DNA of 64,000 nt from Parasporobacterium sp. (GTDB lineage Bacteria > Bacillota > Clostridia > Lachnospirales > Lachnospiraceae): positions 535 to 64,534 of the forward strand of contig JAFUBX010000014.1 of NCBI GenBank assembly GCA_017459985.1. Direction: 5' to 3'. Shown here one piece after another: positions 23,151 to 38,158 of the stretch (position 1 is the first letter of the stretch; each line of letters starts with the position of its first letter). The notes below the pieces were generated by a model. It was not told where the DNA came from and ran no database searches. It saw only the letters and a list, made by a program, of their open reading frames with translations. A program made the position numbers and the translations under genes.

Positions 23151-23153
23151 GCC

Positions 23154-23573
23154 ATGATGCAAAGTGTTAAGACGAAGAAAAGTCTGATCACCGGGATCGT
23201 CCTTCTGGGGATCTCGGTTTTCCTGACAATCGGGGTAAAACTGATCTTTCATGCCTGTGTTCATGAAGACGGCTCCAAAGGATCCTGCTTCTGGGCAGAG
23301 CAGGCGGTGCAGGCGGCGGGAATCCTGCTGATCCTTGAATGCCTGATTCTGGTTTTCGCAAAGGAGCGTTCCGCCCAGAGAGCCCTTTCCCTGGTGATCT
23401 GCGGAACCGGCATTGTGACGGCATTGCTTCCGCAGGTCTTTATCAGCCTGTGCATGATGCCCTCCATGAGGTGCAATGCTCTCATGCGTCCCTGCACGAT
23501 TGCCTGCAGTGCGGCGCTGGTGATCGGCGGGATCCTGAATCTGTTTCTGAACCGGAGGACGCAGACATCATGA
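23154..23573 (+). CDS. DUF4418-like Cys-rich small membrane protein
   Basis: 139 aa, four hydrophobic segments, HAC motif (FHACVHEDGSKGSC). Its stop overlaps the next start (ATGA). Confidence 0.55.
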   Translation: MMQSVKTKKSLITGIVLLGISVFLTIGVKLIFHACVHEDGSKGSCFWAEQAVQAAGILLILECLILVFAKERSAQRALSLVICGTGIVTALLPQVFISLCMMPSMRCNALMRPCTIACSAALVIGGILNLFLNRRTQTS

Positions 23574-24778
23574 CAGAGAGCCTGTCTTTCAAAAATCTGA
23601 CAAAACGGCCCGGCAGAGCACTGGCACTGGCTTTGCTGTGCGCGTTCTTATGTTTTGCGGCGCTGGCGGGATCCTTGTTTGTGACCGGCCTGAGACAGGG
23701 CCTGTCCTCCCTGGAAACCCGGCTGGGTGCGGATATCATGGTGGTTCCCTACGAGGCAACCAGCAAAAGCAGGCTGTCGGATATGATCCTCCAGGGCAAC
23801 CCCGGGTATTTTTATATGGACAGCGCCGTGATGGACAAGCTGCGTTCCATGGAGGGAGTGGGAGAGATTTCCGCCCAGTTTTTCCTTGCCACCGCCAGCT
23901 CCAGCTGCTGCAGCGCAGCGGTCCAGATCATCGGATTTGATCCTGCTACAGACTTTACCATTCAGCCCTGGGTGAAGCATTCTTATCAGGGAGAACTGGG
24001 AAACATGCAGGTCCTGGTGGGAAACGATCTGAATGCGTTTCCCGGGGATGTTCTGACATTTTACGGTTCCGATGTAACGGTAGCAGCGAAGCTGGATCGG
24101 ACAGGCACCTATCTGGATACCGCAGTCTATGCGAATCCGGAGACTATCCGGACGCTGATCGCACAGGCGATGGAAAAGAAAATCTATGATTTCGGCGACA
24201 TCGATCCCTACGAAGTGGTTTCCTGCGTACTGATCAATGCGGCGGACGGATACGTGACAGAGGATGTCCTGAACGAGATCAACATTCATGTCAGAAAGGT
24301 GGAAGCGGTCCAGACCTCTGCGCTGCTTTCCGATGTCTCATCCAAACTCACGGGACTTTCTTCTCTGATCGGATGGCTGATCGCGGCGATCTGGATCCTG
24401 GCCATCGGAATCCTGATCCTGGCGTTTGTGATGATCTCCAATGAACGGAAGAAAGAGTTCGCCGTCCTGCGAACCCTGGGAGCATCCAGGGGGAAACTGG
24501 CAGGACTCATTATGAAGGAATCCCTTCTGGTGAGCTGCTTCGGAAGTCTGCTGGGAGCTGCCCTGGCTCTACTGGCAGTCTGGCTTTTCGGAGGAGCCGC
24601 GGAAAATGCCATGGGTCTTCCGTTTCTGCTTCCGAAGGCGGGAGGACTGATCCTTCTGAGTGCTGTATCCATTGCCGCGACGATCCTGGCAGGATCCCTG
24701 GCGGCAGCCGTCAGCGCCTTCCGGATCAGTGGGATCGATACGGCGTTTATATTACGGGGAGATGACGGAAGATCATGA
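23570..24778 (+). CDS. ABC transporter permease, FtsX/MacB type
   Basis: ORF 23339..24778. Preferred start is 23570 (MTESLSFKNLTKRPGRAL). N-terminal TM, large extracytoplasmic domain, C-terminal FtsX 3-TM bundle (ERKKEFAVLRTLGAS). Confidence 0.8.
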   Translation: MTESLSFKNLTKRPGRALALALLCAFLCFAALAGSLFVTGLRQGLSSLETRLGADIMVVPYEATSKSRLSDMILQGNPGYFYMDSAVMDKLRSMEGVGEISAQFFLATASSSCCSAAVQIIGFDPATDFTIQPWVKHSYQGELGNMQVLVGNDLNAFPGDVLTFYGSDVTVAAKLDRTGTYLDTAVYANPETIRTLIAQAMEKKIYDFGDIDPYEVVSCVLINAADGYVTEDVLNEINIHVRKVEAVQTSALLSDVSSKLTGLSSLIGWLIAAIWILAIGILILAFVMISNERKKEFAVLRTLGASRGKLAGLIMKESLLVSCFGSLLGAALALLAVWLFGGAAENAMGLPFLLPKAGGLILLSAVSIAATILAGSLAAAVSAFRISGIDTAFILRGDDGRS

Positions 24779-25464
24779 AACTGACAGCTCTTCAGGCAAC
24801 GAGAAATTATATCAGAAAGCGGGAAGGATCCAATCTCTTCTGCGCGGTGGAAGAGACCAGTGTGACTCTGGAACCGGGGACCCTTACGGTTCTTTCCGGC
24901 CCTTCGGGAAGCGGAAAGAGCACCCTGCTCAATATGTTTGCGGGACTTCTGCCGCCCAGCAGCGGACAGATCCTGCTGGACGATACGGATCTTTACCATC
25001 TTGAAGACCGGGAATTGTCCCGGCTGCGCAATCTCCATATCGGGATCATTCCTCAGGGCCAGACGGCACTGGCGGCTTTCAATGTGCAGGACAATATCCT
25101 GATGCCCTGGCTGCTGTATGGCAGCAGAAAGAACGAAGCCTTTTCGGAAAAAAGAAAACGTGCGGAAGAATTGATGGAAGCGGCCGGGATCCTGGAACTT
25201 CGGCGGGAGATGCCCTCCGGACTGTCCGGCGGAGAGATCCGGAGAATGGCGGTGTGCCGGGCAATGCTTCAGAAACCGGAGATCATCCTGGCCGATGAGC
25301 CCACCGGGGATCTGGATGAGGAAAATACAGCCGTGGTGATGGATCTTCTGAAGGAGCATGCGGCATCCGGCGGGACGGTTTTTGTGGTCACTCACGACAT
25401 ACAGGTCCGAACCTATGCGGACCGGATGCTGTCTATGCGAAAAGGCGTCGTTACTGAAGAGTGA
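24775..25464 (+). CDS. ABC transporter ATP-binding protein
   Basis: Walker A GPSGSGKST, signature LSGGE, Walker B ILADEPTGDLD. ATGA overlap with the permease gene. Confidence 0.9.
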   Translation: MKLTALQATRNYIRKREGSNLFCAVEETSVTLEPGTLTVLSGPSGSGKSTLLNMFAGLLPPSSGQILLDDTDLYHLEDRELSRLRNLHIGIIPQGQTALAAFNVQDNILMPWLLYGSRKNEAFSEKRKRAEELMEAAGILELRREMPSGLSGGEIRRMAVCRAMLQKPEIILADEPTGDLDEENTAVVMDLLKEHAASGGTVFVVTHDIQVRTYADRMLSMRKGVVTEE

Positions 25465-25504
25465 CGGATCGTGAAGGAGGATGCCGGAGGATTTCGGTTA
25501 GCAT

Positions 25505-25552
25505 CTGCAAACAAGTCAATTTCTGTATAAAAATACTGCAATAGAAGTCAAT
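25505..25552 (+). promoter_or_regulatory. Direct repeat pair upstream of the iron-operon promoter (candidate activator site)
   Basis: CTGCAAacAAGTCAAT (25505-25520) and CTGCAAtagAAGTCAAT (25536-25552), starts 31 bp apart, ending just upstream of the expected -35 position. Confidence 0.3.
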
Positions 25553-25581
25553 AATGTGAAACACAATCCTCCTGCAGAGTG

Positions 25582-25620
25582 TATAATTAAACTCGTTCTT
25601 TTGGTTAGCAAAAACTAACC
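25582..25620 (+). promoter_or_regulatory. -10 box plus second copy of the GGTTAGC palindrome ahead of the iron operon
   Basis: TATAAT at 25582-25587. GGTTAGC-AAAA-ACTAACC at 25603-25620 (perfect 6-bp arms GGTTAG/CTAACC). An isolated GGTTAGC half-site lies at 25496-25502. Confidence 0.45.
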
Positions 25621-25640
25621 GACTGATACGAAGAGGTAGA

Positions 25641-27236
25641 ATGATGACGATCAAAAGGAATGATTTTTCAAAAAGAATAAAGGCGGCCGGAGTTCTTGCA
25701 CTGATCTTTCTCGTATTAGCGATGACTAATATTTCAGTTTTCGCCGAGGAGGAATATGTTTATTATGAGACTTGGGCGCAGTATCAGGAAGCCGGCGGAA
25801 CCGCTGCAACCTGGAACGAGAAAGCCGATGTGCTGGAAGGGGTTCTGAGCTATGCAGTTACCCTGTTCGAACAGGGGATCCTGACAAAGGATGACGGTTC
25901 TCCGAACGCCTACGATGTGGTCAATAAGGGAGGCTACTACGGCTACTATGAGACCACCGGATTTGAACGGGCCACCAATGGTTTTTCCGGAGCCCGGGTA
26001 TCGCAGATCGAGCTGCAGTTCAAGACCTGCCGGCAGATTGCGAAAAAAGGAGGATCTCTGGAAGATTTCCGGACGGAGATCACCACGTTGATTCAGTGGC
26101 TGCATGAAGACGCCAATACACTGGACGGAGTCAGCGGCGAAACCGCGGATACTGCTTCCGGCAGCGAAGGAACCTCTGCTTCCGCAGCGGCTCTGGTATG
26201 GACCTCCAGCTTTACAATCATTCTCCGGGAAGGATTTGAAGCGATTCTGATCGTCGGTGCCATTGTTGCCTACCTGAAGGTGTCCGCCGGAGAAGATAAG
26301 AAGGAAAAGAGCAAAAAGGCCCGTCCTGTTTATCTCGGCGCTGTGATCGGTATCGCGGCAAGCTTCGGCCTTGCATGGCTTTTGAATGCTGTGAAACTGG
26401 CCAACACCGCTTCCCAGGAAATCATCGAAGGCGTGACCGCACTTCTGGCGGTGTGTGTGCTGTATTACGTCAGCAACTGGATGCTGTCAAAGTCGGAAAC
26501 CGACGCCTGGACCAGCTACATTAAGAAGAAAGCGACGGCATCCTCCGGAAAAGGAAGCATGTTCGCACTGGCCTTTACCGCATTTCTGGCGGTGTTCCGG
26601 GAAGGAGCGGAGGTGGTGCTGTTCTATCAGCCGCTTCTGAATCAGGGCAATGATGCCAGCGTGTGGTCCGGGTTTATCATTGGCTGTGTCTGCCTGATCA
26701 TTGTATGGCTGATCATCCATTTCCTGAGTATCCGGATCCCGATCAAGCCCTTCTTTACCGCAACCAGTGTTCTCATGTTTATCATGTCGATTTCTTTCCT
26801 GGGCGGAGGCATCAAGGAACTGATCGAGGGCGATGTGATCGGAGCTACTTCACCGGCCTGGCTGCAGTGGATCCCCTACACGGATTTCCTGGATATGCTG
26901 GGCATCTATCCGGTACTGGAGACGCTGATCCCGCAGCTTCTGCTGCTGATCATTACAGTGATCATCTTCGTTGTTGTTACAAAGAAGAACCGGAGAATTC
27001 ATGCGGAGGCCGAGGCAAAACGCGCGGCAGAACAGGCGGTCAGAGAGGCGGAAGAAAAAGCCGCCAGGGAAAAAGCCCTTACAGGATATATTACGAACGT
27101 AGTAAACCAGATCCTTCTGTCCAATGGCCTGATCGATAAACTGCCGGAGCCGGAAGCGGCCAAAACCGTGCAGGAAATTACACAACAGGCGGGAGATGTG
27201 ATCCGGAATGCGGGACAGACCGCGCTGGACGCCTGA
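25641..27236 (+). CDS. FTR1/EfeU-family iron permease with a large N-terminal extracytoplasmic domain
   Basis: Two REXXE motifs (REGFEAIL, REGAEVVL) in a 7-TM-like body, plus a signal/anchor segment at the N-terminus. Confidence 0.85.
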   Translation: MMTIKRNDFSKRIKAAGVLALIFLVLAMTNISVFAEEEYVYYETWAQYQEAGGTAATWNEKADVLEGVLSYAVTLFEQGILTKDDGSPNAYDVVNKGGYYGYYETTGFERATNGFSGARVSQIELQFKTCRQIAKKGGSLEDFRTEITTLIQWLHEDANTLDGVSGETADTASGSEGTSASAAALVWTSSFTIILREGFEAILIVGAIVAYLKVSAGEDKKEKSKKARPVYLGAVIGIAASFGLAWLLNAVKLANTASQEIIEGVTALLAVCVLYYVSNWMLSKSETDAWTSYIKKKATASSGKGSMFALAFTAFLAVFREGAEVVLFYQPLLNQGNDASVWSGFIIGCVCLIIVWLIIHFLSIRIPIKPFFTATSVLMFIMSISFLGGGIKELIEGDVIGATSPAWLQWIPYTDFLDMLGIYPVLETLIPQLLLLIITVIIFVVVTKKNRRIHAEAEAKRAAEQAVREAEEKAAREKALTGYITNVVNQILLSNGLIDKLPEPEAAKTVQEITQQAGDVIRNAGQTALDA

Positions 27237-27302
27237 GAGTTAGTTAATTTACTGGGCTTCGGGCCCAGAAGTTATAAAAAAATAAGAAATATGGAGGAAA
27301 AC

Positions 27303-27869
27303 ATGAAAAAGAGAATTTTATCAATCGTTCTTGCTGCTGCAGTCAGCATGTTCTGCTTCGCAGGCTTTGCTATGGCGGCCGATGATCAGGCTGCAGGATT
27401 CACAGAGATCCCGATCTTCGAAGACGAAGAGCTGGCATTCATCAACCTGAGCGCAGTTTACTTCCAGCCGGTTCCGATGGCTCCCGGCCAGGAAAGCATT
27501 GAAGACTTTGATCTTCATCTGGAAGCAGATATCGCTGCTCTCGAAAACGACCTTGGCTACGGCGTTGGTGACTGGGTTCCGTATCTTACCGTTGATTACA
27601 AGGTAGTCGGCTCCAACGGCGAAGTTGCAGCAGAAGGTTCTTTCATGCCCATGGCAGCATCTGACGGCCCGCACTATGGCGCCAACATCAAGCTTCCGGA
27701 AGCTGATACCTATTCCATCACCTTCACGATCCACAGCCCGGCAGAGAACGGATACCTGATCCACTCTGACGCTGAGACAGGCCCGGGAGGAGTCCTGGAA
27801 GATGTCTTCGGTGACGGCAACCTGGAATACACCTTTGAAGGATGGGATTACATTCCGCAGGAGTGGTAA
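27303..27869 (+). CDS. P19/Tp34-type extracytoplasmic iron-transport protein
   Basis: ORF 27291..27869. ATG 27303 (MKKRILSIVLAAAV...) follows GGAGGA. Contains the HLEADIAA, FMPMAASDGPHYGANI motifs typical of the P19/FtrA/Tp34 family. Confidence 0.8.
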   Translation: MKKRILSIVLAAAVSMFCFAGFAMAADDQAAGFTEIPIFEDEELAFINLSAVYFQPVPMAPGQESIEDFDLHLEADIAALENDLGYGVGDWVPYLTVDYKVVGSNGEVAAEGSFMPMAASDGPHYGANIKLPEADTYSITFTIHSPAENGYLIHSDAETGPGGVLEDVFGDGNLEYTFEGWDYIPQEW

Positions 27870-27994
27870 GATCCCGGCGTGCTTGCTGAAAGCACGGAAC
27901 GTTCAAAAAGAAATAGTTTAAAAACATATTACGCTGTGGCGGCGCGTTCTGCAACGCCACAGCATAATGTGCGTTTAGAGGAAAGAGGAAAATC

Positions 27995-29242
27995 GTGCTT
28001 AAATATCTGGTAGATGCAACCTTACAACTTGTCGCAATGATGATCATTGTGGGAATGATCCTTGGGTTTGTAAGAAACTATTTCGGTGATAAGCCCGGAA
28101 AACTGATTCAGATCGCAGTCCTTGCGGGAGTTCTCTGCGCGGCAGCCATGGCGGTGATGAAAACAGTAACCAATAAGATCGATACCGGCGGATGGAACCT
28201 GTGGTTTTATTATATTTCTCTGGGATGCTTTCTGCTGTTTCTGGTCAGTACGGTGCTGTTTTGCCGGAAAAAGGTTCTGCATTCTCTCATTCCCTGCATT
28301 TTCCTGGGTGTGATCATTGTGATCCAGATGGTGTATGCACTGGCCGACTTCTTCGTTTATCCCCATACGATCATGCTGACAGAGGATTCTTTGCTGTCCA
28401 CTAATTTCCTGACTAAGATGTCAGGAGCTCTTGTGGGACTGATCGTGACTCTGATCGTCGGATTTTCCGCCAACGCGGTTGCAAAAGCCCTGAAAAGAGG
28501 CGAATCCCTGTTCTTTCTCTGCCTGATCCTGATCACGGTATCCTGCCGGCAGGTTGCGGCTTCCTTCAGTACGCTGCTCACCCGCAGGATCATCCCGAAT
28601 AATCATACGCTGTTTCAGATTGCCAAGTTTTCTTCCAACCACAGCAGTTTATTTAAATACATTTGTCTGGGCATTTTGATGGCAGCGGCCATTCTGCTTC
28701 TGATCAGGAGCCTGCGTGAAAATGAGCCCTACAGCAATCCTGCGCAGCGCCGTAAGATTATCTTCAAATACCGGATGATCCGGAGGTGGAGCACAACCGC
28801 ACTGATCTTCTCCGTGATCTGTATCCTGATGATGACGGTCATTTACGGGATTGCCAACAGGGAAGTGGAGCTGTCCCCAATCGAGGACTGTGAGATCGAA
28901 AACGGTGCGCTAGTCATTCCCTTTGAAATGGTGGATGACGGACATCTCCACCGCTTTGGGTATGAGACGGACAATGGAGTTGTGATCCGGGTGATCGTGA
29001 TCCAGAAACCCAATTCCTCCTCCTATGGCATCGGTCTGGATGCCTGCGATATCTGCGGAGAAACGGGTTATTACGAAAAGGATGGCCAAGTTGTATGCAA
29101 TCTGTGCGATGTGGTTATGAACATCAATACCATCGGTTTTAAAGGAGGATGCAATCCGATCGTGATCGATTACACAATTGAAAACGGCAGGATCCTGATT
29201 CCGGTTGAAGGACTGATGGAATACGAAAGTGAGTTCAAATAA
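27995..29242 (+). CDS. DUF2318-type membrane protein with a C-terminal Cys-rich domain
   Basis: GTG start behind AGAGGAAAGAGGAAAA. Multi-TM N-terminal half; C-terminal LDACDICGETGYYEKDGQVVCNLCDVVMN...GGCNP. Confidence 0.7.
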   Translation: MLKYLVDATLQLVAMMIIVGMILGFVRNYFGDKPGKLIQIAVLAGVLCAAAMAVMKTVTNKIDTGGWNLWFYYISLGCFLLFLVSTVLFCRKKVLHSLIPCIFLGVIIVIQMVYALADFFVYPHTIMLTEDSLLSTNFLTKMSGALVGLIVTLIVGFSANAVAKALKRGESLFFLCLILITVSCRQVAASFSTLLTRRIIPNNHTLFQIAKFSSNHSSLFKYICLGILMAAAILLLIRSLRENEPYSNPAQRRKIIFKYRMIRRWSTTALIFSVICILMMTVIYGIANREVELSPIEDCEIENGALVIPFEMVDDGHLHRFGYETDNGVVIRVIVIQKPNSSSYGIGLDACDICGETGYYEKDGQVVCNLCDVVMNINTIGFKGGCNPIVIDYTIENGRILIPVEGLMEYESEFK

Positions 29243-29244
29243 AC

Positions 29245-30531
29245 ATGTTTTTGAGAATGGTTCGCGGAACGCTGTTCCGCCAATGGAAAAAAATGCTGAT
29301 GATCGCTTTTACGATCGCCCTGGGAGCCTCCCTGTGCACTGCCATGCTCAGTGTGGTTCTGGACGTGAAGGACAAAGTGAATCAGGAACTGAAGGCCTAT
29401 GGCGCCAATATTACCGTGGTTCCCAAGCAGGCTTCCATTCTGAATGATCTTTATGAAGTGGAAGGACAGAGCGCGGGAACGGTGTATCTGAAGGAAGACG
29501 AACTGGGAAATATCAAGACGATCTTCTGGGCCTTCAACATTGTGGATTTTGCGCCGTTTGTGAATACAGAGGCGATCCTCGATGACGGATCTTCCGTGGC
29601 AGTGACCGGCAGCTGGTTCCATCATCATCTGTCTCTTCCCACCGGGGAGGAACTGGATGCGGGCATGAACAGCCTGAGAAGCTGGTGGGATATTACTGCG
29701 GGGGAATGGATCGATGAGGCTTCCATGGAAGAAACGGCTGTGATGATCGGTGATGCGCTGGCAGAACGGACAGGACTTTCCGCCGGAGATACGATCCACC
29801 TGAAGGGGACTGAGAAAGAGGGCAATTACTGGATTGCCGGCGTCTTCAATGCCGGCGGAGACGAGGATCAGCAGATTTTTATGCAGCTGAATGAAGCCCA
29901 GGCCCTTTCCGGGCTGGATGGCTGTGTAAACAGTATTGAGGTCAGTGCTCTGACAACGCCGGACAATGAACTGGCGGTCAAAGCAGCCCGGGATCCGAGT
30001 TCCCTGACTATCGCCCAGTATGAGACCTGGTACTGCACCGCTTACGTAAGCTCCATCTGTTATCAGATCCAGGAGGTGATCACCGATTCAGTGGCCAGCG
30101 CAGTACGGCAGGTGGCGGATTCGGAAGGAGCGATCCTTGATAAGACACAGCTTCTGATGATCCTGATCACAATTCTGGCCCTGGTGGGATCCGCCCTTGG
30201 TATCTGCAACCTCGTGACCGCCAGCGTCATGGAGAGGAGCCGGGAACTGGGACTGGTAAAGGCACTGGGTGCCTATAACCGCTCCGTGATGTCACCGGTA
30301 CTGACTGAGATCCTGATTACGGCTGTCGTAGGCGGGGTGGCAGGATTTTTTGCCGGGATCGGATTTGCCCAGATTATCGGACATTCTGTTTTCAATTCTT
30401 CGATTGCGATCCGGCCGATGCTGATCCCGATTGTAACGATCCTGGTATTGCTGGTGACATTCGCAGGATGCATTCCTGCTTTCCGGACAATATTGAAACT
30501 GGAGCCCACAGTAGTTCTGCACGGAGGTTGA
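29245..30531 (+). CDS. ABC transporter permease, FtsX/MacB type
   Basis: 428 aa: N-terminal TM, extracytoplasmic domain, C-terminal FtsX bundle (ERSRELGLVKALGA). Confidence 0.85.
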   Translation: MFLRMVRGTLFRQWKKMLMIAFTIALGASLCTAMLSVVLDVKDKVNQELKAYGANITVVPKQASILNDLYEVEGQSAGTVYLKEDELGNIKTIFWAFNIVDFAPFVNTEAILDDGSSVAVTGSWFHHHLSLPTGEELDAGMNSLRSWWDITAGEWIDEASMEETAVMIGDALAERTGLSAGDTIHLKGTEKEGNYWIAGVFNAGGDEDQQIFMQLNEAQALSGLDGCVNSIEVSALTTPDNELAVKAARDPSSLTIAQYETWYCTAYVSSICYQIQEVITDSVASAVRQVADSEGAILDKTQLLMILITILALVGSALGICNLVTASVMERSRELGLVKALGAYNRSVMSPVLTEILITAVVGGVAGFFAGIGFAQIIGHSVFNSSIAIRPMLIPIVTILVLLVTFAGCIPAFRTILKLEPTVVLHGG

Positions 30532-30541
30532 GAAAGATACG

Positions 30542-31684
30542 ATGAAGAAAAGAAAAATGTTTTACCGTATGGTCACAGCCTCGCTGATGAGAAGACGGTC
30601 CCGGATGCTGATCGCTCTTCTGGCAGTGGCCATTGGGGCAACGATTCTGTCGGGGCTGATGACGATCTATTTTGATGTGCCGCGGCAGATGGGGGCCCAG
30701 TTCAGAAATTACGGAGCCAATATGATATTCACTCCGGCGCAGGAGGAGTTTCAGCAGGCGGACCTGGAGCAGGGAATCTCTCTGATCGATCCGAAGGAAC
30801 TGGTGGGAGCAACCCCGTTCCGTTATGAGTCGGTCCGGATCCATGAACAGCCTCTGATGGCGGCGGCCACGGATATGGAAAGTGTCGGAAAGACCAGCCC
30901 CTACTGGTCTGTGGACGGAGAATGGCCCTCGGTTTCCCGTCAGGCAATGGTGGGAAAAACAATCGCCGAGAATCTGAATCTCTCCATCGGAGATCAGATG
31001 ACGATCAATTATACTCCGGAGGACGCGGATGAGGAAACGCCGGATAACTGGATCGACTGCAAGGTGACGGCGATCCTGAATACCGGCGGTTCGGAAGAAG
31101 AGTATGTATATCTTTCCATGGAGGATATGGAGGATCTCACCGGCGTTCCGGGGGTGATCGATCTGGCGGAGATCAGCGTTTCCGCCACGTCTGAAAAACT
31201 GTCTTCCTATGTGGAAACGATCAATGCTTCGGTGGATTCGGTCCGGGCGGAACTGGTTAAGAGAGTCACGGCTTCGGAGACCTCGGTCCTTTCCAAACTG
31301 CAGGCGCTGGTCCTGCTGGTAACGATCATTGTGCTGGCTTTGACAATGATCTGCGTTGCAACCACCATGACTGCCGTTGTCACCGAACGCCGCCAGGAGA
31401 TCGGTCTCAGAAAGGCGATCGGAGCTTCGGACGCCAGCATCATGAAGGAGTTTATGGGAGAAAGTCTTCTGCTGGGAGCCATCGGAGGAATCCTTGGAGC
31501 CATCGTAGGATTTGTATTTGCCCAGGTGGTCAGCGTGAATGTGTTCGGAAGTTCGATTTCCTTCCGCCCTCTGCTGGCAATCATAACCATCATTGTTTCT
31601 GTATTGATCACGGCGCTGACCTGTGTGCTGCCGATCCGGAGCGCAACCAGGGTGGACCCTGCATTAGTATTAAAAGGAGAATAA
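30542..31684 (+). CDS. ABC transporter permease, FtsX/MacB type
   Basis: 380 aa with the same architecture (ERRQEIGLRKAIGAS). Confidence 0.85.
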   Translation: MKKRKMFYRMVTASLMRRRSRMLIALLAVAIGATILSGLMTIYFDVPRQMGAQFRNYGANMIFTPAQEEFQQADLEQGISLIDPKELVGATPFRYESVRIHEQPLMAAATDMESVGKTSPYWSVDGEWPSVSRQAMVGKTIAENLNLSIGDQMTINYTPEDADEETPDNWIDCKVTAILNTGGSEEEYVYLSMEDMEDLTGVPGVIDLAEISVSATSEKLSSYVETINASVDSVRAELVKRVTASETSVLSKLQALVLLVTIIVLALTMICVATTMTAVVTERRQEIGLRKAIGASDASIMKEFMGESLLLGAIGGILGAIVGFVFAQVVSVNVFGSSISFRPLLAIITIIVSVLITALTCVLPIRSATRVDPALVLKGE

Positions 31685-31687
31685 ATC

Positions 31688-32374
31688 ATGAGTCTGTTGG
31701 AACTGAAACATGTATATAAAATCTACGGAGATCTGCATGCGCTGGACGATGTGAATCTGAAGGTGGAAAAGGGAGAATGGGTTTCCATTATGGGACCTTC
31801 CGGTTCCGGCAAAAGCACCATGATGAATATCATCGGCTGCATGGATAAGCCTTCCAAAGGAGAGGTCCTTCTGGACGGCGTGGATATCGCGAAGGAAAGC
31901 TCGAAGAATCTGACGCTGATCCGCAGGGACAAGATCGGACTGATTTTCCAGCAGTTTCATCTGGTGAATTATCTGAGTGCGCTGGAAAATGTCATGCTGG
32001 CGCAGTACTATCACAGTGTTCCGGACAAGGAGGAAGCGATGCAGGCCCTGGAACGGGTAGGCCTCGCAGACCGGGCCCGGCATCTTCCGTCCCAGCTTTC
32101 CGGCGGAGAACAGCAGAGAGTCTGTGTTGCCAGGGCACTGATTAATTATCCGGAGATTATTCTGGCGGATGAGCCCACGGGAAATCTGGATGATAAAAAT
32201 GAAGAGATCGTCGTGGATCTGTTCCATAAACTTCATGCAGAGGGGACAACCCTGATTGTGGTCACCCATGATCCGGAGGTGGCAGAAGTTGCCCAGAGAA
32301 CGGTGGTTCTGCGTCACGGAAAACTGGAACGGGAAGTGATCAACGAGAATTTTACCGGGACATTTCAGCACTGA
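31688..32374 (+). CDS. ABC transporter ATP-binding protein (MacB/LolD-like)
   Basis: Walker A GPSGSGKST, signature LSGGEQQR, Walker B ILADEPTGNLD. Confidence 0.9.
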   Translation: MSLLELKHVYKIYGDLHALDDVNLKVEKGEWVSIMGPSGSGKSTMMNIIGCMDKPSKGEVLLDGVDIAKESSKNLTLIRRDKIGLIFQQFHLVNYLSALENVMLAQYYHSVPDKEEAMQALERVGLADRARHLPSQLSGGEQQRVCVARALINYPEIILADEPTGNLDDKNEEIVVDLFHKLHAEGTTLIVVTHDPEVAEVAQRTVVLRHGKLEREVINENFTGTFQH

Positions 32375-32389
32375 GAAGGAAGGAAGCCA

Positions 32390-32848
32390 ATGAGAACAAA
32401 GTGGATCATTTTAGGAATTACAGGCATTTTGTGCACAATATTACTTGCCGGCTGCGGGGAGTCTTCCAAAAAGGCAGCCTGGAAGGATGGAACCTATACA
32501 GCCCAGAGCAGCGTGTTTACCAACGATGACGGATCAGAGGACGGCAATGGCTATGGCGTTGTTACCCTGACAATTAAAGACGGGGCAATTGCGGAGTGTA
32601 CGTATCAGACCTTTGAGGTGGACGGAACCCTGAAGGATGAGGAGTACGGAAAGCAGAATGGCTCCATTGCCAACCGGGATTATTACAGCAAAGCCCAGAA
32701 AGCGGTTGCAGCCTGCGATGAATATGCTAAAATGCTGATCGCCAATGAAGGGCTGGACGGGATCGACGCCATCAGCGGCGCCACTGTCAACTATAATGAA
32801 TTTGTGGAAGCGGTCAATCTGGCATTGAAGGAGGCGGCACAGGAATAG
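32390..32848 (+). CDS. FMN-binding-domain lipoprotein
   Basis: Lipobox LLAGC (Cys22). C-terminal DAISGATVNY matches the Dxx[ST]GA[ST] FMN-attachment motif of FMN_bind domains. Confidence 0.75.
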   Translation: MRTKWIILGITGILCTILLAGCGESSKKAAWKDGTYTAQSSVFTNDDGSEDGNGYGVVTLTIKDGAIAECTYQTFEVDGTLKDEEYGKQNGSIANRDYYSKAQKAVAACDEYAKMLIANEGLDGIDAISGATVNYNEFVEAVNLALKEAAQE

Positions 32849-32851
32849 CGC

Positions 32852-33361
32852 ATGAAGATCCTTTCCGCGGTCAGGCATACGGGAATCATACTCGCAGGAG
32901 TATTCTTGCTCCTGGGAGTTCCTTTGCTGTGCAGCGGCGGTTGGAACCGTCTGTTCTCCGGGGATCCGGATGCGGTTTCCAGTGCTTCGGTGATTCTGGA
33001 CAAGCCCTCGGGCCGTTATGTGATGCTGATCAACAGAGATTTTCATCCGGATACGGCGACGCTGGATGACTGGATCACGTTTTTTGAAGGCGGGGAGATC
33101 CTTTATATCTTCGAGGATATCGCTGTCTCGGTGGCGGAGATTGACGCCGGAGGGATCGAACTGGCAAACAGTTTCAGGTCCAAGCTTCCGGAGAACCAGA
33201 TGCAGGTGAAAAAGGAAGACATTACGCTTCTTCTGTCCCGGGCGGATCACGGCCTGTATGATATGATCCTTCTGTCGGAGGAGATCGCCCGGGCTTATCA
33301 TGCGGAAACGGCATATCTGCCTTTCTGCGAAGTCGTTTATATCAGCACGGAGGAAACATGA
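32852..33361 (+). CDS. Membrane-anchored hypothetical protein
   Basis: 169 aa with one N-terminal hydrophobic segment. No motif recognised. 3 nt after the previous stop, and ATGA overlap with the next gene. Confidence 0.5.
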   Translation: MKILSAVRHTGIILAGVFLLLGVPLLCSGGWNRLFSGDPDAVSSASVILDKPSGRYVMLINRDFHPDTATLDDWITFFEGGEILYIFEDIAVSVAEIDAGGIELANSFRSKLPENQMQVKKEDITLLLSRADHGLYDMILLSEEIARAYHAETAYLPFCEVVYISTEET

Positions 33362-33918
33362 GAAAGATAAACGCGATACTTGGCCCGGCGATGATCCTGC
33401 TGCTCCTGATTCATGTGATCACAGGGGTTTTTCAGCTGACTTCTGTGATACCCGGCGGTTCAATGATCCGGAAGGTGCTGGCGATCATTCTGACGGTGCT
33501 GGTGGGGATCCATATGGTGATCGGGATCCTTCTTACGGTTCAGACCCTTACAGCCTGCAGAAAAACCGGAGTATCGTATTTTAAGAATAACGAGCTGTTC
33601 TGGCTCCGCCGGATCAGCGGATTTGCCATGCTGTTTCTGATTATCGCGCATATTCTGATCTTTTCCGGCGAATCGGGGGAGGCGTTCCGTCTGCACAGCT
33701 TCGGATCGCTCCCTCTGATTTTAAGTCTGCTGCTGGTGCTGGCGCTGGCGATTCATCTGATCACGAATATCAGACCCCTGTTTATCGCCCTTGGCATTGA
33801 GAACCGGGTCTTCCTGAAGGACATTATGGTGATCCTCAGTATTCTTCTTCTGGTCAGTGCAGCGGCATTTTTGTTTTATTATCTCAGATGGAATGTGCTT
33901 TGGAGTTACAGCAGGTGA
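33358..33918 (+). CDS. Putative di-haem cytochrome b membrane anchor of an Sdh/Frd-type complex
   Basis: 186 aa, five hydrophobic helices, one His in each of helices 1-4 (LLIHVITG, LVGIHMVIG, IIAHILIF, LAIHLITN). Directly upstream of the flavoprotein and Fe-S subunit genes. Confidence 0.55.
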   Translation: MRKINAILGPAMILLLLIHVITGVFQLTSVIPGGSMIRKVLAIILTVLVGIHMVIGILLTVQTLTACRKTGVSYFKNNELFWLRRISGFAMLFLIIAHILIFSGESGEAFRLHSFGSLPLILSLLLVLALAIHLITNIRPLFIALGIENRVFLKDIMVILSILLLVSAAAFLFYYLRWNVLWSYSR

Positions 33919-33940
33919 GAGCGGATCGGGAGGATGTTCT

Positions 33941-35605
33941 ATGAAGGTCAACATTATCGGGGCCGGGCTGGCGGGACTGTCGGCAGCGATCACTCTCGCA
34001 AAGAAGGGGATCCCCTGTAATCTGGTATCGCTTCTTCCTTCGGAACGGGCCCAGTCGGTTCTGGCGGAGGGCGGAATCAACGGCGCTCTGAATACCATGG
34101 GCGAAGGGGATACCCCGGCGGAGCATTTTGAGGATACGATCCGGGCGGGGGTTTATCTGGCGGATGAGAACGCGGTCCGTAACCTGACGGAACAGGCTCC
34201 GGAAATCCTGCGGGAACTGCGGGATCTGGGAGTCCCGTTTCATCTGGAGAACGAGAGGATCATCCAGAGAAATTTCGGCGGTCAGAAGAAAAAAAGAACC
34301 GCGTACGCAAGGAGCAGTACCGGAAAGGTTCTGATGACGGCCCTGATTGATGAGACCCGGAAATATGAGGTCCGGGGACTGGTGACCCGGTATCCTCATC
34401 ATGAGCTGGAGGATCTGCTGACGGAGGAGCTTTCGGCCAATTCAAAGAGCAGCTGCTGCGGGGCGCTGATCCGGGATCACTATACCGAAGAGGCGATCGT
34501 ACTTCAGGGCCCGGTGATCCTGGCGACCGGCGGAATGAATGGACTTTTTCCGGGGGAGACCACGGGGACTGTGACCAATTCCTCCGATGCGGCAGCGCTT
34601 GTTTTTTCCAAAGGTGTCCGCTTCAGCAATCTGGAGATGATCCAGTACCATCCGACTACGATCCGGATTCCGGGGAAACGATGTCTGATCAGCGAGGCGG
34701 CCCGGGGTGAGGGCGGAAGATTATTTACTTTGCGAGGCGGGAATCCCTGGTATTTTATGGAAGAGAAGTATCCGGAACTGGGGAATCTGATGCCGCGGGA
34801 TGTGGTTTCCCGGGAAATGTATTTTGTGGCCCATGATCCAAACTGCTGCGGACAGGTATGGCTCGATCTGCGTCATCTGGCGGGAGAGACCTGGCGGAAG
34901 AAACTGCCGGATCTTCGGGAAGAAGTGATTCATTATCTTGGGATTGATCCTGCGAAGACTCCGGTCCCGGTTGAACCGGGCATCCATTATTTCATGGGCG
35001 GGATCGATGTGGACATCAGTCACCGCACCAGCTTCCGGAATCTGTTTGCTGCAGGGGAGTGCTGCAGCCAGTATCACGGAGCCAACCGTCTGGGAGGAAA
35101 TTCCACGATGGGGGCAATCTATGGCGGGAAAGTGGCAGCGCAAAGCGCGGCAAAGGCTCTTGCAGAATGTTCCGGGAAAATCTCCGGAATGCAGGCGCAG
35201 CAGACAGTCAAGGAAGGAAAGGGATTGGTTCCGGTTTCCGAAGAAGCCGCGCAGCAGATCAGCAAACTCCTGCTGGGCGCCCTGGGAATTGTCAGAACGG
35301 AAGCAGATCTGGAAGCCGCGATCGGAGAGATTGACAGAATGCTGTCAGGCAGGAAGGATCGTTCCGGAGATTGCACGGACTTCCGGGAACTTCCGGCAGC
35401 ACATTCGTCGAATCCCAAGGAACTGCGAAGACTCCTGCTGGCAAAAGCCCTGCTGCTGTCTGCCTCCTGCAGAAAAGAAAGCCGCGGCGCCCATTACCGC
35501 AGCGATTATCCCGAAACAGAGGATGACTTCCGGACAAAGATGATCAGTTATGCCGCCGGGGCAGAAGTATTTGCCGCTCCGGAGCAGGAACTTCCGCCCG
35601 GCTGA
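33941..35605 (+). CDS. Succinate dehydrogenase/fumarate reductase-family flavoprotein subunit
   Basis: ORF 33857..35605. Preferred start is 33941 (MKVNIIGAGLAGLSAAI). Carries QRNFGGQ, QYHPTT, ARGEGG, HYFMGGI, SRGAHYRSDYPE motifs. Confidence 0.85.
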   Translation: MKVNIIGAGLAGLSAAITLAKKGIPCNLVSLLPSERAQSVLAEGGINGALNTMGEGDTPAEHFEDTIRAGVYLADENAVRNLTEQAPEILRELRDLGVPFHLENERIIQRNFGGQKKKRTAYARSSTGKVLMTALIDETRKYEVRGLVTRYPHHELEDLLTEELSANSKSSCCGALIRDHYTEEAIVLQGPVILATGGMNGLFPGETTGTVTNSSDAAALVFSKGVRFSNLEMIQYHPTTIRIPGKRCLISEAARGEGGRLFTLRGGNPWYFMEEKYPELGNLMPRDVVSREMYFVAHDPNCCGQVWLDLRHLAGETWRKKLPDLREEVIHYLGIDPAKTPVPVEPGIHYFMGGIDVDISHRTSFRNLFAAGECCSQYHGANRLGGNSTMGAIYGGKVAAQSAAKALAECSGKISGMQAQQTVKEGKGLVPVSEEAAQQISKLLLGALGIVRTEADLEAAIGEIDRMLSGRKDRSGDCTDFRELPAAHSSNPKELRRLLLAKALLLSASCRKESRGAHYRSDYPETEDDFRTKMISYAAGAEVFAAPEQELPPG

Positions 35606-35687
35606 AAGGGCCGTCTTTGGCAGGCAGGAAAAGTGCTCAGGCGGGAAACTTGCTAATAATAAACAGAACCTTTTGCCTTGATGATTT

Positions 35688-36392
35688 ATGATGAACTATC
35701 AGTTTGACATATTACGAAGAGAACATGCAGATGCGGAGCCATGGCATCAGATCATTGCGTTTGAGACGGAAGATGCAAACGAGACGGTCGCCACTGCACT
35801 TCAGAAGATCGGAACCGGCCATTCTCGGGATGTCGCGGGAAGAGAAGTGGCTCCGATTGCCTGGGAGGCAGGCTGCCTGCAGAAAAAATGCGGAGCCTGC
35901 GCCATGCTGATCAACGGCCTGCCCAGGCTTGCCTGCGACACCTTCCTGAGGCAGCTGAAGAGTAAAAAAATCACTCTCGCTCCCCTCCGGAAATTCCCGG
36001 TGATCCGGGATCTGGTCACAGACCGTTCGGTCATGTTTGAAAATCTGAAAACCCTTGAAGTGTGGAGCGAAACCACCTCTCCGGTAAAGGAGAAGGATCT
36101 TGACCGGGCCTATGACGCCTCCCGGTGTCTTCAGTGCGGATGCTGTCTGGAGGCCTGTCCGAACTTCGAGCCGGGCGGATCCTTCTTCAGCGCAGCCGGA
36201 TTTGCGCCGCAGGCCCGCCTTCTTACTTCCTGCGCTTCTTCCATGCAGGATAACATCAGAAAATTATATCAGCTCCATATCTATGATGGCTGCGGGAAAG
36301 CCCTGGCCTGCGAGAAAGTCTGTCCGGCCGGAATCAATCTGGACCGGCTGCTCAGCCGCTCCAATGCGGTGAAGATCTGGCACCGGAAGTGA
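35688..36392 (+). CDS. Succinate dehydrogenase/fumarate reductase-family iron-sulfur subunit
   Basis: Three cluster motifs: C-x4-C-x2-C-x11-C (CLQKKCGACAMLINGLPRLAC), CLQCGCCLEACP, CGKALACEKVCP. Confidence 0.85.
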   Translation: MMNYQFDILRREHADAEPWHQIIAFETEDANETVATALQKIGTGHSRDVAGREVAPIAWEAGCLQKKCGACAMLINGLPRLACDTFLRQLKSKKITLAPLRKFPVIRDLVTDRSVMFENLKTLEVWSETTSPVKEKDLDRAYDASRCLQCGCCLEACPNFEPGGSFFSAAGFAPQARLLTSCASSMQDNIRKLYQLHIYDGCGKALACEKVCPAGINLDRLLSRSNAVKIWHRK

Positions 36393-36432
36393 AATCACTG
36401 CCGGTAATCTCATATATTCCAAATGCATCATT

Positions 36433-36490
36433 CGGAAGGTAAATTCTGAAAAAGCCTGGAACCTACATACTATACCTTCCATTTTCCGGG
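36433..36490. repeat. Left arm of a ~58-bp imperfect inverted repeat
   Basis: The reverse complement of 36433-36490 matches 37097-37153 at roughly 52 of 58 positions (hand alignment). The arm itself contains GGAAGGTA...TACCTTCC. Confidence 0.6.
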
Positions 36491-36539
36491 TCTTCTGTAC
36501 CTTGGGTGGGTACCTTTCTGATGTCGAATGTGCCGTAAA

Positions 36540-37012
36540 GTCTATGCCGCCGTTGCCTTCATTCATACTTGCTTCCATCCTGCCATTTGGGCCATCCAGG
36601 AAATAATTGCCATTCACTATCCCTGCCATTTTTGCGAAAACAGGGATAAGACTTTCCAATAATTTCATATATAGTCCAGTTCAGGCTCTCTCAGGACCTT
36701 CATTTTGGACCATATTTTGAAAAATCGTCACCTCATATCCCTGTTTTCAAAATCGAAACAGGGATATGATTTATCAATAATTTCAAATCTGGTCCAGTCC
36801 GGGCCCTCTTCTACCTCGCAATTCGGACTGTATATAAAAAACTGCCAATTACTATCCCTGTTTTCCGGATCAGCGCAGGGATAGTAATTGGCAATTATTT
36901 CGCTGATCACCCAAAGACCAACAGATAAGAACAGCTTTCTCCGCAACTTGCGGCTCTCAGAAAATAACGGATAATAAGCCATTAGCGAACAGCTCAAGTT
37001 GTACTCACTCAA
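36540..37012 (-). pseudogene. Decayed repeat-protein gene (about 39-aa units) interrupted by stops and a frameshift
   Basis: Minus-strand units read ...YYPCADPENRDSNWQFFIYSPNCEVEEGPDWTRFEIIDK / SYPCFDFENRDMR* / (shifted frame) SYPCFRKNGRDSEWQLF.... One TGG->TGA change sits at the conserved Trp position. Confidence 0.35.
36618..36891. repeat. Three hairpin-containing tandem units with a 117-118 bp period
   Basis: Core TATCCCTG...CAGGGATA at 36618-36625/36641-36648, 36735-36746/36756-36767 (12-bp stem) and 36845-36860/36876-36891 (16-bp stem). Confidence 0.65.
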
Positions 37013-37032
37013 GGTTCACTTCAGTAGATGGC

Positions 37033-37153
37033 GGAAGGCCTGGTATGGAGTTTACAGGCTTTCTTAGAATTTACCTTCCGGATTTCCGGTGATTTGCCCG
37101 GAAAACGGTAGGTATAGTATGGAGGTTCCAGGATTTTTCTGAATTTACCTTCC
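37033..37153. repeat. Right arm of the inverted repeat, present as two tandem degenerate copies
   Basis: About 37033-37080 and 37097-37153 share ...GGTATGGAG.TT.CAGG.TTT.T..GAATTTACCTTCC. Confidence 0.55.
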
Positions 37154-37237
37154 ACTGTCTGCGGAAATAACTTTCAAAACCGGAAAAATGAGCTGATACA
37201 ATTCAGAAAACAGAGGCTACAGCGGAAAGGAGGACGT

Positions 37238-37429
37238 ATGCAAATCAGTTATAAACCGGATGTAAATATAGAATTAAAGGAATTAGAGACGCCAGAAGGA
37301 TATAAACCCATTTATTATAATCAGATCCGATTTTTTTGCCGGAAAGAAAATGTAACGGTGAGATGTACCTATGGCATGGAGGTTCTGAAAAATCTTAACC
37401 TGGGACAGCTGGTCAGCATACTGGTTTGA
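37238..37429 (+). CDS. Small hypothetical protein (63 aa)
   Basis: Strong RBS GGAAAGGAGGAcgtATG. No recognisable motif. Lies in the AT-richer islet. Confidence 0.4.
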   Translation: MQISYKPDVNIELKELETPEGYKPIYYNQIRFFCRKENVTVRCTYGMEVLKNLNLGQLVSILV

Positions 37430-37504
37430 TAAAGTGTGGAAACCATTTTCAAAAAACTTAACCCCCTTTTTGTAAACTGATAAAAAAGGAAACGGAGAAA
37501 GAAC

Positions 37505-38062
37505 ATGAGTAAAAAAGATCTGATCACATTCAAACATTATCGAAACCCCATGAAAATGCAGAAGACCATGAATCAGAGGACCTGTTATGAAGCATCCATT
37601 TCCGTTGGCAGTATGTCCCTTTTACGTGTAAAAACAGGACATATTCTGACGAAGGATGATTGCATGGAAATCTATTCGGGGGCTCCGTTCAAAATCGTTG
37701 CCGATGGGATTCTCGGCCCCATATTGAATTCCGGGAAACCATTCGGGAAGCCTGATATGGTATTCCGATATTCCAACATAAAGACGATAGAAAAGGGAAC
37801 GTTTATAAAAAATAACACAATCGTCTTTACCCTGTTTGATGATACCGTCTATACCGTTGGCCTGGGGAAATACAGAGATATTATAGTGAACAGATCACTG
37901 AAATTCTGCAGAGACTGGACCTGCTGCAGGACAGGCAGCAGGTGTGAACTATTATCCATAGGAAGCCGGCAGACAGCTGCCGGTCTTCATTCGGCAAATT
38001 CAGGGGGTGGGAGCTGCTGCTTGCATCCCTTTTTTCACAATTATTTCATAGATTACAGTTGA
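37505..38062 (+). CDS. Hypothetical protein, possibly frameshifted near 37864 (alternative end at 37947)
   Basis: RBS AAAGGAAACGGAGA. The first ~120 aa look protein-like (possibly bacterial PH-like). After the GGGG run the annotated frame turns Cys/Gly-rich, whereas the +1 frame reads ...PGEIQRYYSEQITEILQRLDLLQDRQQV* and is followed by a hairpin at 37962-37988. Confidence 0.45.
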   Translation: MSKKDLITFKHYRNPMKMQKTMNQRTCYEASISVGSMSLLRVKTGHILTKDDCMEIYSGAPFKIVADGILGPILNSGKPFGKPDMVFRYSNIKTIEKGTFIKNNTIVFTLFDDTVYTVGLGKYRDIIVNRSLKFCRDWTCCRTGSRCELLSIGSRQTAAGLHSANSGGGSCCLHPFFHNYFIDYS

Positions 38063-38087
38063 CTTTGAAAAGGGCGGGTGGTAATAT
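38059..38087 (+). promoter_or_regulatory. Sigma-A promoter of the hrcA operon
   Basis: TTGACT (38059-38064), 17-nt spacer, TAATAT (38082-38087). Confidence 0.6.
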
Positions 38088-38098
38088 AACCACAGATG

Positions 38099-38125
38099 TT
38101 AGCACTCCACTAACACGAGTGCTAA
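38099..38125 (+). promoter_or_regulatory. CIRCE operator (HrcA binding site)
   Basis: Perfect TTAGCACTC-N9-GAGTGCTAA immediately downstream of the -10 box. Confidence 0.92.
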
Positions 38126-38158
38126 CAGGGAAGAGAAACAGGACGTAAGGGGCTTCTT

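Follow-up and report, generated by a model that had tools for sequence, protein, structure and literature searches.

How the P19-type iron importers come by their redox power has been left open in the literature, where reducing power was guessed to be 'sourced from FetBCD and through FetA' (PMC10783030). The question is raised again by a locus of Parasporobacterium sp. (Lachnospiraceae; assembly GCA_017459985.1, contig JAFUBX010000014.1, positions 535 to 64,534 of the forward strand; this whole stretch of 64,000 nucleotides (nt) is called the window here). In it, the genes of such an importer, with the permease FTR1 and the metal-binding protein P19, are followed on the same strand by genes for two proteins predicted to carry flavin mononucleotide (FMN) and for a trio that resembles succinate dehydrogenase/fumarate reductase (Sdh/Frd, or complex II): a cytochrome b-like anchor, a flavoprotein and an iron-sulfur subunit. 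Does the trio belong to the importer, and in which direction would electrons then run? We consider it very probable that the importer, the trio and the two FMN proteins form one redox-coupled unit; that electrons also flow inwards through this unit has at best an even chance. The genes and the operator-like site in front of them are as follows.

25603-25620, + strand: operator-like palindrome GGTTAGCAAAAACTAACC, 20 nt before the start of the FTR1 reading frame and just past a TATAAT at 25582-25587
25641-27236, + strand: FTR1/FetM-type permease with an N-terminal extracytoplasmic extension (PF03239, E = 2.9e-25)
27291-27869, + strand: P19/FetP secreted metal-binding protein (Iron_transport; PF10634, E = 7e-44)
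27995-29242, + strand: FetA-like polytopic membrane protein with a C-terminal DUF2318/FtrD-like Cys domain (PF10080, E = 3.6e-28)
29245-30531, + strand: FetB-like FtsX/MacB-type permease (FtsX and MacB_PCD; PF02687 and PF12704)
30542-31684, + strand: FetC-like FtsX/MacB-type permease (FtsX and MacB_PCD; PF02687 and PF12704)
31688-32374, + strand: FetD-like ATP-binding cassette (ABC) ATPase (ABC_tran; PF00005, E = 5e-35)
32390-32848, + strand: FMN_bind lipoprotein with the lipobox LLAGC (PF04205, 27.8 bits against a cutoff of 22)
32852-33361, + strand: membrane-anchored 169-amino-acid (aa) protein, predicted second FMN carrier (no reliable Pfam family)
33358-33918, + strand: five-helix, four-His cytochrome b-like anchor of 186 aa (weak Sdh_cyt match, E = 2e-4)
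33941-35605, + strand: cytoplasmic SdhA/FrdA-like flavoprotein (FAD_binding_2 and Succ_DH_flav_C; PF00890, E = 3e-77, and PF02910)
35688-36392, + strand: SdhB/FrdB-like iron-sulfur subunit (Fer2_3 and Fer4_8; PF13085 and PF13183)

A check of the open reading frames (ORFs) returned these eleven on the + strand within 25641-36392. The first-pass annotation of this DNA had described eleven co-directional genes with short junctions, and its coordinates and strand were right, except that the junction at 29242/29245 measures 2 nt and not 3; the whole series is 54, 125, 2, 10, 3, 15, 3, -4, 22 and 82 nt. An identical eleven-gene array was present on two independent metagenome contigs in the European Nucleotide Archive (ENA). 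It had also been stated that the larger gaps hold no convincing terminator, and this was borne out by a consensus scan, which found no terminator-like site in any intergenic gap of the array and, in total, no more such sites than in shuffled sequence. At the boundary between importer and trio no intrinsic terminator, promoter or significant structure was found, the 82-nt gap between the SdhA- and SdhB-like genes showed no significant RNA structure, and an Rfam scan of 22000-38200 gave zero matches.

A gene-neighbourhood census, which the first-pass annotation had suggested for P19+FTR1 loci, was made with the 186-aa protein as its anchor. This protein has about 148 detectable relatives among 5.8 billion proteins, and a profile was built from 26 of them. 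A scan with the C-terminal motif [AG]F[VIL][IVF]Y[YF][LI]RW[NQI] matched 113 species-representative genomes, of which the 80 best entered the census with 10-kb flanks. All eleven genes were colinear in 43 of the 45 loci with enough flank (44 if an FtsX protein of 43% identity in locus L071 is counted), so that the linkage of the trio recurs in several phyla. The genes for the ABC ATPase, the FMN_bind lipoprotein and the 169-aa protein stood directly 5' of the cytochrome b-like gene in 69 of 74 loci, and those for the SdhA- and SdhB-like proteins stood 3' of it in all 68 of 68. The hosts are labelled Ruminococcus, Oscillospiraceae, Lachnospiraceae, Catonella, Oscillibacter, Sphaerochaeta, Flexilinea/Leptolinea and Acholeplasmatales; two of them, Catonella morbi ATCC 51271 and Oscillibacter sp. 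GMB15532, are cultured, and the habitats named in the record titles are the anoxic rumen, the gut and the mouth. Most cluster proteins are only 38-60% identical between loci, which argues that the array persisted through a long divergence and was transferred in one piece. An exception is the FetD-like ABC ATPase, with 74-89% identity in all related loci, across phyla, compared with the 38-60% of its operon neighbours; it is under unusually strong constraint.

As a separate observation, the whole cluster was seen in metagenome-assembled genomes labelled Sphaerochaeta, Leptolinea/Flexilinea, Acholeplasmatales and Alistipes (L019, L056, L058, L066, L071 and L032). Either the cluster was passed between phyla within rumen communities, or the short contigs among these cases were binned wrongly.

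In the related loci the estimated median junctions given for the series from FMN_bind lipoprotein through anchored protein, cytochrome b and SdhA to SdhB were -1, 1, -1.5 and -1.5 nt, and the estimated median between the ABC ATPase and the FMN_bind gene was 35 nt, compared with 116 nt for FTR1/P19 and 175 nt for P19/FetA. There is translational coupling between the distal genes. The palindrome GGTTAGCAAAA[A/G]CTAACC has exactly two copies in the 64 kb (25603-25620 and 22513-22530) where 0.09 would be expected. Of 53 related loci, 42 have its core GTTAG-N6-CTAAC, with at most one mismatch, within -250 to +40 of FTR1, where it is 124 times as dense as elsewhere in the loci. In front of the FMN_bind and cytochrome b genes of the related loci, no copy recurs. 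The half-sites resemble DtxR/IdeR boxes. Upstream of FTR1 in the window there is no Fur box within three mismatches; locus L078 has a perfect one at -114 of FTR1. We also noticed six copies of GTTAG-N6-CTAAC upstream of FTR1 in L044 (1457-1810), the five proximal ones about 34 nt apart. The synteny, the translational coupling and the one conserved operator before FTR1 together support the earlier proposal that an Sdh/Frd-like trio is wired into the importer operon.

Two stable hairpins without U-tracts lie in the larger gaps, at 27245-27276 between FTR1 and P19 (z = -3.1) and at 27917-27978 between P19 and FetA (z = -4.0). They may act in processing, stability or attenuation and so determine how much P19 there is relative to the downstream proteins. 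Given the positions of the hairpins, any attenuation would take place between P19 and FetA and not between importer and trio; in Campylobacter, too, attenuation has been suspected between P19 and FetA, where there is a larger gap with possible regulation (PMC10783030).

To judge from their sequences, the first seven genes make up the FetMP-FetABCD (P19) importer, the last of the seven encoding the FMN_bind lipoprotein, and that half of the cluster is already known. In order and motifs, genes 1-6 agree with the Campylobacter jejuni FetMP-FetABCDEF system (cj1658-1665) and its homologues in 33 species (PMC6083913, PMC10783030), as the first-pass annotation had said of the Campylobacter P19 layout. 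The FTR1 permease carries two REXXE motifs (REGFE196 and REGAE320). The P19 protein matches Escherichia coli FetP (3NRP, E = 6e-33) as well as the structures of Tp34, FtrA and C. jejuni P19 (E = 1e-23 to 6e-33), and the blocks HLEADI, MPM..DGPHYG and H.D.ETG line up in the alignment. In the FetA-like protein, CDIC-x13-CNLC-x14-C at residues 351-386 fits the motif CxxC-x13-CxxC-x14,15-C of the DUF2318 protein of the Fet/P19 system (PMC6083913). Compared with the C. jejuni system, the thioredoxins FetE/F are absent, four extra genes stand after the FMN protein, an extra DUF4418-FtsX-ABC module is present, and the upstream operator is not a Fur box.

The FMN_bind lipoprotein had been placed outside the P19 model; its tie to iron importers is indeed found in the literature, but as an already documented feature. 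It is known as the seventh gene of P19 clusters in Firmicutes, Actinobacteria, Spirochaetes and Synergistetes (PMC6083913), and Meheust et al. counted 260 clusters with P19 and FMN_bind (PMC8238504). The motif of our protein is D126-A-I-S-G-A-T132, with D, G, A and T invariant in 71 homologues; the ApbE flavinylation motif is [S/T]GA[S/T] (PMC8238504), and the lipoprotein is predicted to be an ApbE substrate. A possible identity with PplA was rejected at 28.4 bits against a cutoff of 325.

The description of the 186-aa protein as a cytochrome b-like protein with five transmembrane helices and four His was confirmed in both respects: the AlphaFold2 (AF2) model (predicted local distance difference test, pLDDT, 84.6) has five long helices, and H19, H52, H98 and H133, invariant in 26 homologues, are located on helices 1-4. 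Against Wolinella succinogenes FrdC the profile reached a marginal E of ~1e-3, pairing H52 with H93 and H98 with H143. The depth of the residues suggests H19/H98 as the distal and H52/H133 as the proximal pair, and the anchor is predicted, from a weak profile match, to follow the di-haem pattern of type-B complex II. A Foldseek search of the AF2 model against the Protein Data Bank returned no significant match, which is uninformative because helical bundles are poorly resolved by it. Several members of the 186-aa family are named 'pilus assembly protein PilX' by NCBI, a label that looks like a propagated misannotation.

The flavoprotein begins at its Rossmann motif and has no signal peptide. 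Its Gln38 aligns with the His that links flavin adenine dinucleotide (FAD) in 6LUM_A and 1E7P_A, and this position is Gln in 76 of 76 homologues; with the linking His absent, the FAD is predicted to be non-covalent. The dicarboxylate site is complete, with H237, E/R255, R286, H349 and R383 kept in the 76 homologues. In an exhaustive HMMER search of 1.84 billion representatives, the relatives down to ~41% identity all lacked the His and showed the signature ER[AS]QSV[ML]A.GGI; the nearest flavoproteins with the His are 36-42% identical and of the Bacillus type KRSHSVCAQGGI. All cutoffs of the NCBIfam equivalogs were missed (best SdhA model 420 bits against 855). The candidate identities NadB (307 against a cutoff of 453) and TfrAB (TfrA 307 against 718; TfrB 87 against 385 bits) were rejected. 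Glu43, five residues beyond position 38, is reportedly the FrdA-type residue, following Maklashina et al. 2006; it was given little weight because it varies in the stand-alone clade described below. In the iron-sulfur subunit the eleven Cys ligands for the 2Fe-2S, 4Fe-4S and 3Fe-4S clusters are all invariant among 72 homologues, and the protein passed TIGR00384 (97.7 bits against a cutoff of 88) and missed the best SdhB equivalog (169 against 244).

The trio is thus like type-B complex II (Bacillus subtilis SdhCAB; W. succinogenes FrdCAB, 2BS2/1E7P) in its C-A-B order, the three-cluster iron-sulfur subunit, the complete dicarboxylate site and the single five-helix anchor with four His on helices 1-4 (I, II, IV and V in the Wolinella nomenclature). 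It differs in having Gln for the covalent-FAD His, an anchor of 186 instead of 202-256 aa, no counterpart of the Wolinella E-pathway Glu and, as the partner at the outer face, a predicted flavinylated protein instead of or besides menaquinone. With the soluble non-covalent-FAD fumarate reductases, NadB and methanogen TfrAB it shares the absence of the FAD-linking His and the same catalytic His/Arg set, but unlike them it is membrane-bound through the SdhB-like subunit and the cytochrome b-like anchor.

The Gln-type trio is not unique to iron operons. Stand-alone trios, each consisting of a membrane protein of 178-191 aa, a Gln-type flavoprotein and an iron-sulfur protein, occur without an importer in Clostridium felsineum, Aminipila and three metagenomic contigs (L085:8431-11419, L087:2900-5819, L088:6443-9422, L089:6411-9369 and L090:6411-9383). 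The distant Gln-type flavoproteins are 43-47% identical to each other, and the stand-alone anchors of L085 and L087, when aligned, keep the four His and lack the YY[LI]RW tail and the FRL loop. A 179-aa gene in front of an SdhA-like gene in Methanosphaera was tried as an anchor and was not homologous, so this case consists of A and B only. From these comparisons the trio appears to be an older, uncharacterised complex II-like module of strict anaerobes, of which one branch probably gained the tail and the anchored protein with the flavinylation-type motif and then became fixed in the importer operon. We infer that the YY[LI]RW tail is a docking surface.

The first-pass annotation had called the 169-aa protein an orphan anchored protein, a description that no longer fits: its flavinylation-type motif is conserved, and it accompanies the cytochrome b also where the importer is missing. 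It consists of a transmembrane helix (residues 2-27), a low-confidence linker and an alpha/beta ectodomain (55-165; AF2 pLDDT 88.8). The linker carries D40-A-V-S-S-A-S46, in the family D-A-V-[ST]-[SG]-A-[ST], with D40 kept in 72, A45 in 64 and S/T46 in all of 73 members. Residues 39-45 are disordered in the AF2 model, and since the heptad is conserved within an otherwise variable, disordered segment, a second FMN near the membrane surface is predicted. It is probable, as far as motifs can tell, that the protein is an FMN carrier close to the membrane and represents a new family of ApbE substrates with a minimal, linker-borne motif. The best Foldseek match of the ectodomain was 3NOH (the uncharacterised Ruminococcus gnavus RUMGNA_00914, E = 2.8e-6); individual lobes of periplasmic binding proteins also gave weak matches. 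The gene overlaps the cytochrome b-like gene by 4 nt. In L055, L061, L070 and L073, four loci with the importer missing or located elsewhere, divergent relatives (~30% identity) stand in front of the cytochrome b; as the protein is found with the cytochrome b even there, it would be the primary partner of the trio. ApbE itself (PF02424) stands directly after SdhB in L071 and, divergently oriented, upstream of FTR1 in L066, and homologues adjoin the cluster in L023, L046 and L063, which makes five related loci.

With the ApbE-flavinylated systems (PMC8238504; Listeria Ndh2-EetAB-PplA) the cluster has in common an extracytoplasmic FMN_bind lipoprotein, an adjacent ApbE in some genomes and a tie to iron assimilation. 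No NapH-like, MsrQ-like, PepSY-like, DsbD or NQR/RNF-like Pfam family was found in the cluster; the apparatus here is complex II-like and falls outside the five classes listed for those systems, where the P19 clusters were filed among those without a transmembrane electron-transfer apparatus (PMC8238504).

We propose that in this FetMP-FetABCD importer the Campylobacter-type thioredoxins are replaced by a dedicated transmembrane electron path. The path would start from the non-covalent FAD at the cytoplasmic fumarate/succinate site and lead through the 2Fe-2S, 4Fe-4S and 3Fe-4S clusters to the proximal and then the distal haem b of the five-helix anchor, from there to the FMN on the membrane-anchored 169-aa protein and the FMN on the lipoprotein, and would end at the metal-handling proteins P19, FTR1 and DUF2318 outside the cell. 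It would couple the extracytoplasmic redox step of the importer to the cytoplasmic fumarate/succinate couple. The gene content, the motifs (those for flavinylation included), the conserved linkage and the loss of the covalent-FAD His are observed facts; we infer which cofactors are bound, which proteins touch, that iron regulates the cluster and which way the electrons run. The direction that we favour is from outside to inside, with Fe(II), the copper site of P19 or the thiols of DUF2318 as the electron source and fumarate as the anaerobic sink, which would let an 'oxidase-dependent' FTR1 permease run without O2 or H2O2. Inward flow is favoured by the non-covalent FAD, by the oxidase-dependence of FetM, by the role of FetE/F and by hosts that live without O2. 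In all characterised cases the non-covalent-FAD relatives reduce fumarate and cannot oxidise succinate, and loss of the covalent bond lowers the midpoint potential of the FAD by 90-150 mV (PMC9557727); FetM is counted among the oxidase-dependent iron transporters, and in vivo FetE/F act as oxidases (PMC10783030).

The cluster is also like the Bordetella/Brucella FtrABCD systems in that a P19-type protein and an FTR1 permease are joined with a membrane redox protein. It differs from them in having neither the FtrB cupredoxin nor the FtrD polyferredoxin, and the proposed sink is a fumarate reductase-like complex reached via FMN proteins. The membrane redox protein of FtrABCD was reportedly proposed, by Brickman and Armstrong in 2012, to remove the electron from Fe(II) oxidation.

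A number of points weigh against a redox-coupled unit with inward flow. The occupancy by haem, FMN and FAD is predicted from motifs alone, and the hosts, which are Clostridia-type fermenters, might make no haem or quinone. No ApbE was found in the annotated 3.4-64 kb span of the window. That the operator responds to iron is a presumption. The scan pattern restricts the census to the subfamily with the YY[LI]RW tail, and within this subfamily five loci (L055, L061, L073, L079 and L080) have no importer beside the trio; since stand-alone Gln-type trios also occur without an importer, the trio can have an independent role. As to the direction, flavinylated FMN domains usually have a low potential and are reductants of Fe(III), and transfer from Fe(II) over FMN to fumarate (+30 mV) against the membrane potential would be thermodynamically tight without strong stabilisation of Fe(III). 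An acidic residue comparable to the E-pathway Glu of W. succinogenes is not conserved in the anchor, and the FMN protein was interpreted by Liu et al. as supplying reducing power (PMC6083913).

The strongest of the other explanations keeps the same unit and reverses the flow: electrons would pass from a cytoplasmic substrate through the iron-sulfur clusters, the haems and the FMN proteins to Fe(III), or would keep the P19 copper or the DUF2318 Cys reduced, for capture of Fe(II) by P19 and import. We regard it as unlikely, though as a serious rival because FMN domains are normally Fe(III) reductants, because of the membrane potential and the missing E-pathway residue, and because of the reading of Liu et al. 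Outward transfer would be aided by the membrane potential, as in the Bacillus succinate:menaquinone reductase, and the lack of an E-pathway-like acidic residue in the anchor fits such electrogenic, potential-assisted transfer; the closest relatives with the His are SdhA proteins of the Bacillus type, whose electrons reach the distal haem at the outer face. The step from reduced flavin to Fe(III) is thermodynamically easy, FMN_bind lipoproteins are known carriers of electrons to Fe(III) in extracellular electron transfer of the Listeria type, and they have been proposed to be the assimilatory iron reductases of P19, MsrQ-like and PepSY-like clusters (PMC8238504, PMC6083913). It was in this direction that the first-pass annotation had the cytoplasmic flavoprotein drive reduction of Fe(III), and this claim is weakened, since it conflicts with Gln in place of the covalent-FAD His in every member and with the inability of such enzymes to oxidise succinate (PMC9557727). 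Nor is a better low-potential donor evident, as the fumarate/succinate site is otherwise standard and the flavoprotein falls below the NadB cutoffs, and soluble iron in rumen and gut would be expected to be largely Fe(II) already.

It is quite improbable that the trio and the anchored flavoprotein are a fumarate-respiring module, with scavenged quinol or an extracellular reductant as donor, which shares the operon for the sake of supply and not of the transport mechanism. A supply link is conceivable for a complex that demands about nine Fe-S irons and two haems, and in favour of such a module are the stand-alone trios of C. felsineum, Aminipila and the three other contigs as well as L055 and L061, in which the anchored protein and the trio are accompanied by DUF4418-FtsX-ABC only. 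Haem exporters such as HrtBA belong to the FtsX-type ABC systems, and by this parallel an accessory role of FtsX-ABC in cofactor handling is conceivable. Iron-rich respiratory enzymes, however, are normally repressed and not induced alongside high-affinity iron importers. That the gene order stays the same across phyla speaks for a partnership, physical or mechanistic, and the FMN_bind seventh gene, which goes with the importer in genomes without the trio (PMC6083913), is coupled here to the anchored protein and the cytochrome b.

Chance adjacency of an ordinary sdhCAB/frdCAB operon and an independent importer is hardly credible and was rejected for the YY[LI]RW subfamily on its synteny, coupling and single operator: an ordinary type-B complex II would have the same C-A-B order and cofactor motifs, but the array is colinear across phyla with overlapping starts and stops, has no internal operator, promoter or terminator signal, misses the NCBIfam Sdh/Frd equivalog cutoffs widely and has lost the covalent-FAD His.

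Full-text searches of the literature found no description of an Sdh/Frd-like complex inside a P19/FTR1/DUF2318 cluster. The cluster thus appears, on comparative evidence, to be new on two counts: a Fet/P19 importer incorporates a module of the complex II type, and a complex II relative combines non-covalent FAD with flavoprotein partners. More tentatively, it may represent a sixth, complex II-derived class of flavinylation-linked transmembrane apparatus: a di-haem, non-covalent-FAD fumarate reductase with two ApbE-flavinylated partners instead of quinone, which would serve FTR1/P19 as an O2-independent 'ferroxidase partner' with fumarate as terminal oxidant.

The second copy of the operator lies upstream of the array, where two further features were found.

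22476-22530, + strand: strong sigma-70-like promoter TTGACA-17-TACAAT, the best match of the region, followed by the operator copy at 22513-22530
22554-25464, + strand: accessory operon behind this promoter, with an Ada_Zn/AraC regulator (22554-23150), DUF4418 (23154-23573), FtsX (23570-24778) and an ABC ATPase (24775-25464)

In about 56 related loci the DUF4418-FtsX-ABC module accompanies the core cluster on its upstream or its downstream side, and in L055 and L061, both without the importer, it directly precedes the anchored protein and the trio. Its operon with Ada_Zn/AraC is, by operator and neighbourhood, a putative co-regulated accessory to the importer cluster. The eleven-gene unit of the first-pass annotation is therefore drawn too small: the DUF4418-FtsX-ABC module travels with it, as does elsewhere a transglutaminase-like lipoprotein or ApbE. 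A gene for this transglutaminase-like lipoprotein (PF01841) stands after SdhB or before FTR1 in about 40 related loci, for example L016:12827-13714 and L010:12844-13797, and is absent from the window.

Downstream of the array, beginning 42 nt past the SdhB stop, two arms of a 57-nt inverted repeat (36434-36490 and 37097-37153; 91% complementary) surround 606 nt of GC-poor DNA. The segment 36434-37153 has three copies of a CAGGGAT-type hairpin repeat and no Rfam match, and looks like an insertion resembling a miniature inverted-repeat transposable element or like an invertible segment. Two more FAD_binding_2 proteins are encoded in the window. One is a second fumarate reductase-like flavoprotein (3740-5200) between a DctM TRAP transporter (2416-3723) and FMN_red (5225-6172), and 2416-6172 may be a soluble dicarboxylate reductase cluster; the other (50795-52285, - strand) adjoins the NADH_4Fe-4S/polyferredoxin oxidoreductase genes at 47419-50669.

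The P19/FetMP-FetABCDEF importer is widespread, also among pathogens, and its need for a redox partner has been acknowledged and not explained. The cluster supplies a full candidate path, with fumarate/succinate as the defined couple on the cytoplasmic side, and makes the redox question of the importer testable in two cultured strains, C. morbi ATCC 51271 and Oscillibacter sp. GMB15532. Strict anaerobes also turn out to have a complex II-like lineage, so far uncharacterised, with non-covalent FAD and a four-His anchor. For the ecology of rumen and gut, it suggests that the iron acquisition of abundant fibre-degrading Clostridia is tied to their fumarate/succinate metabolism.

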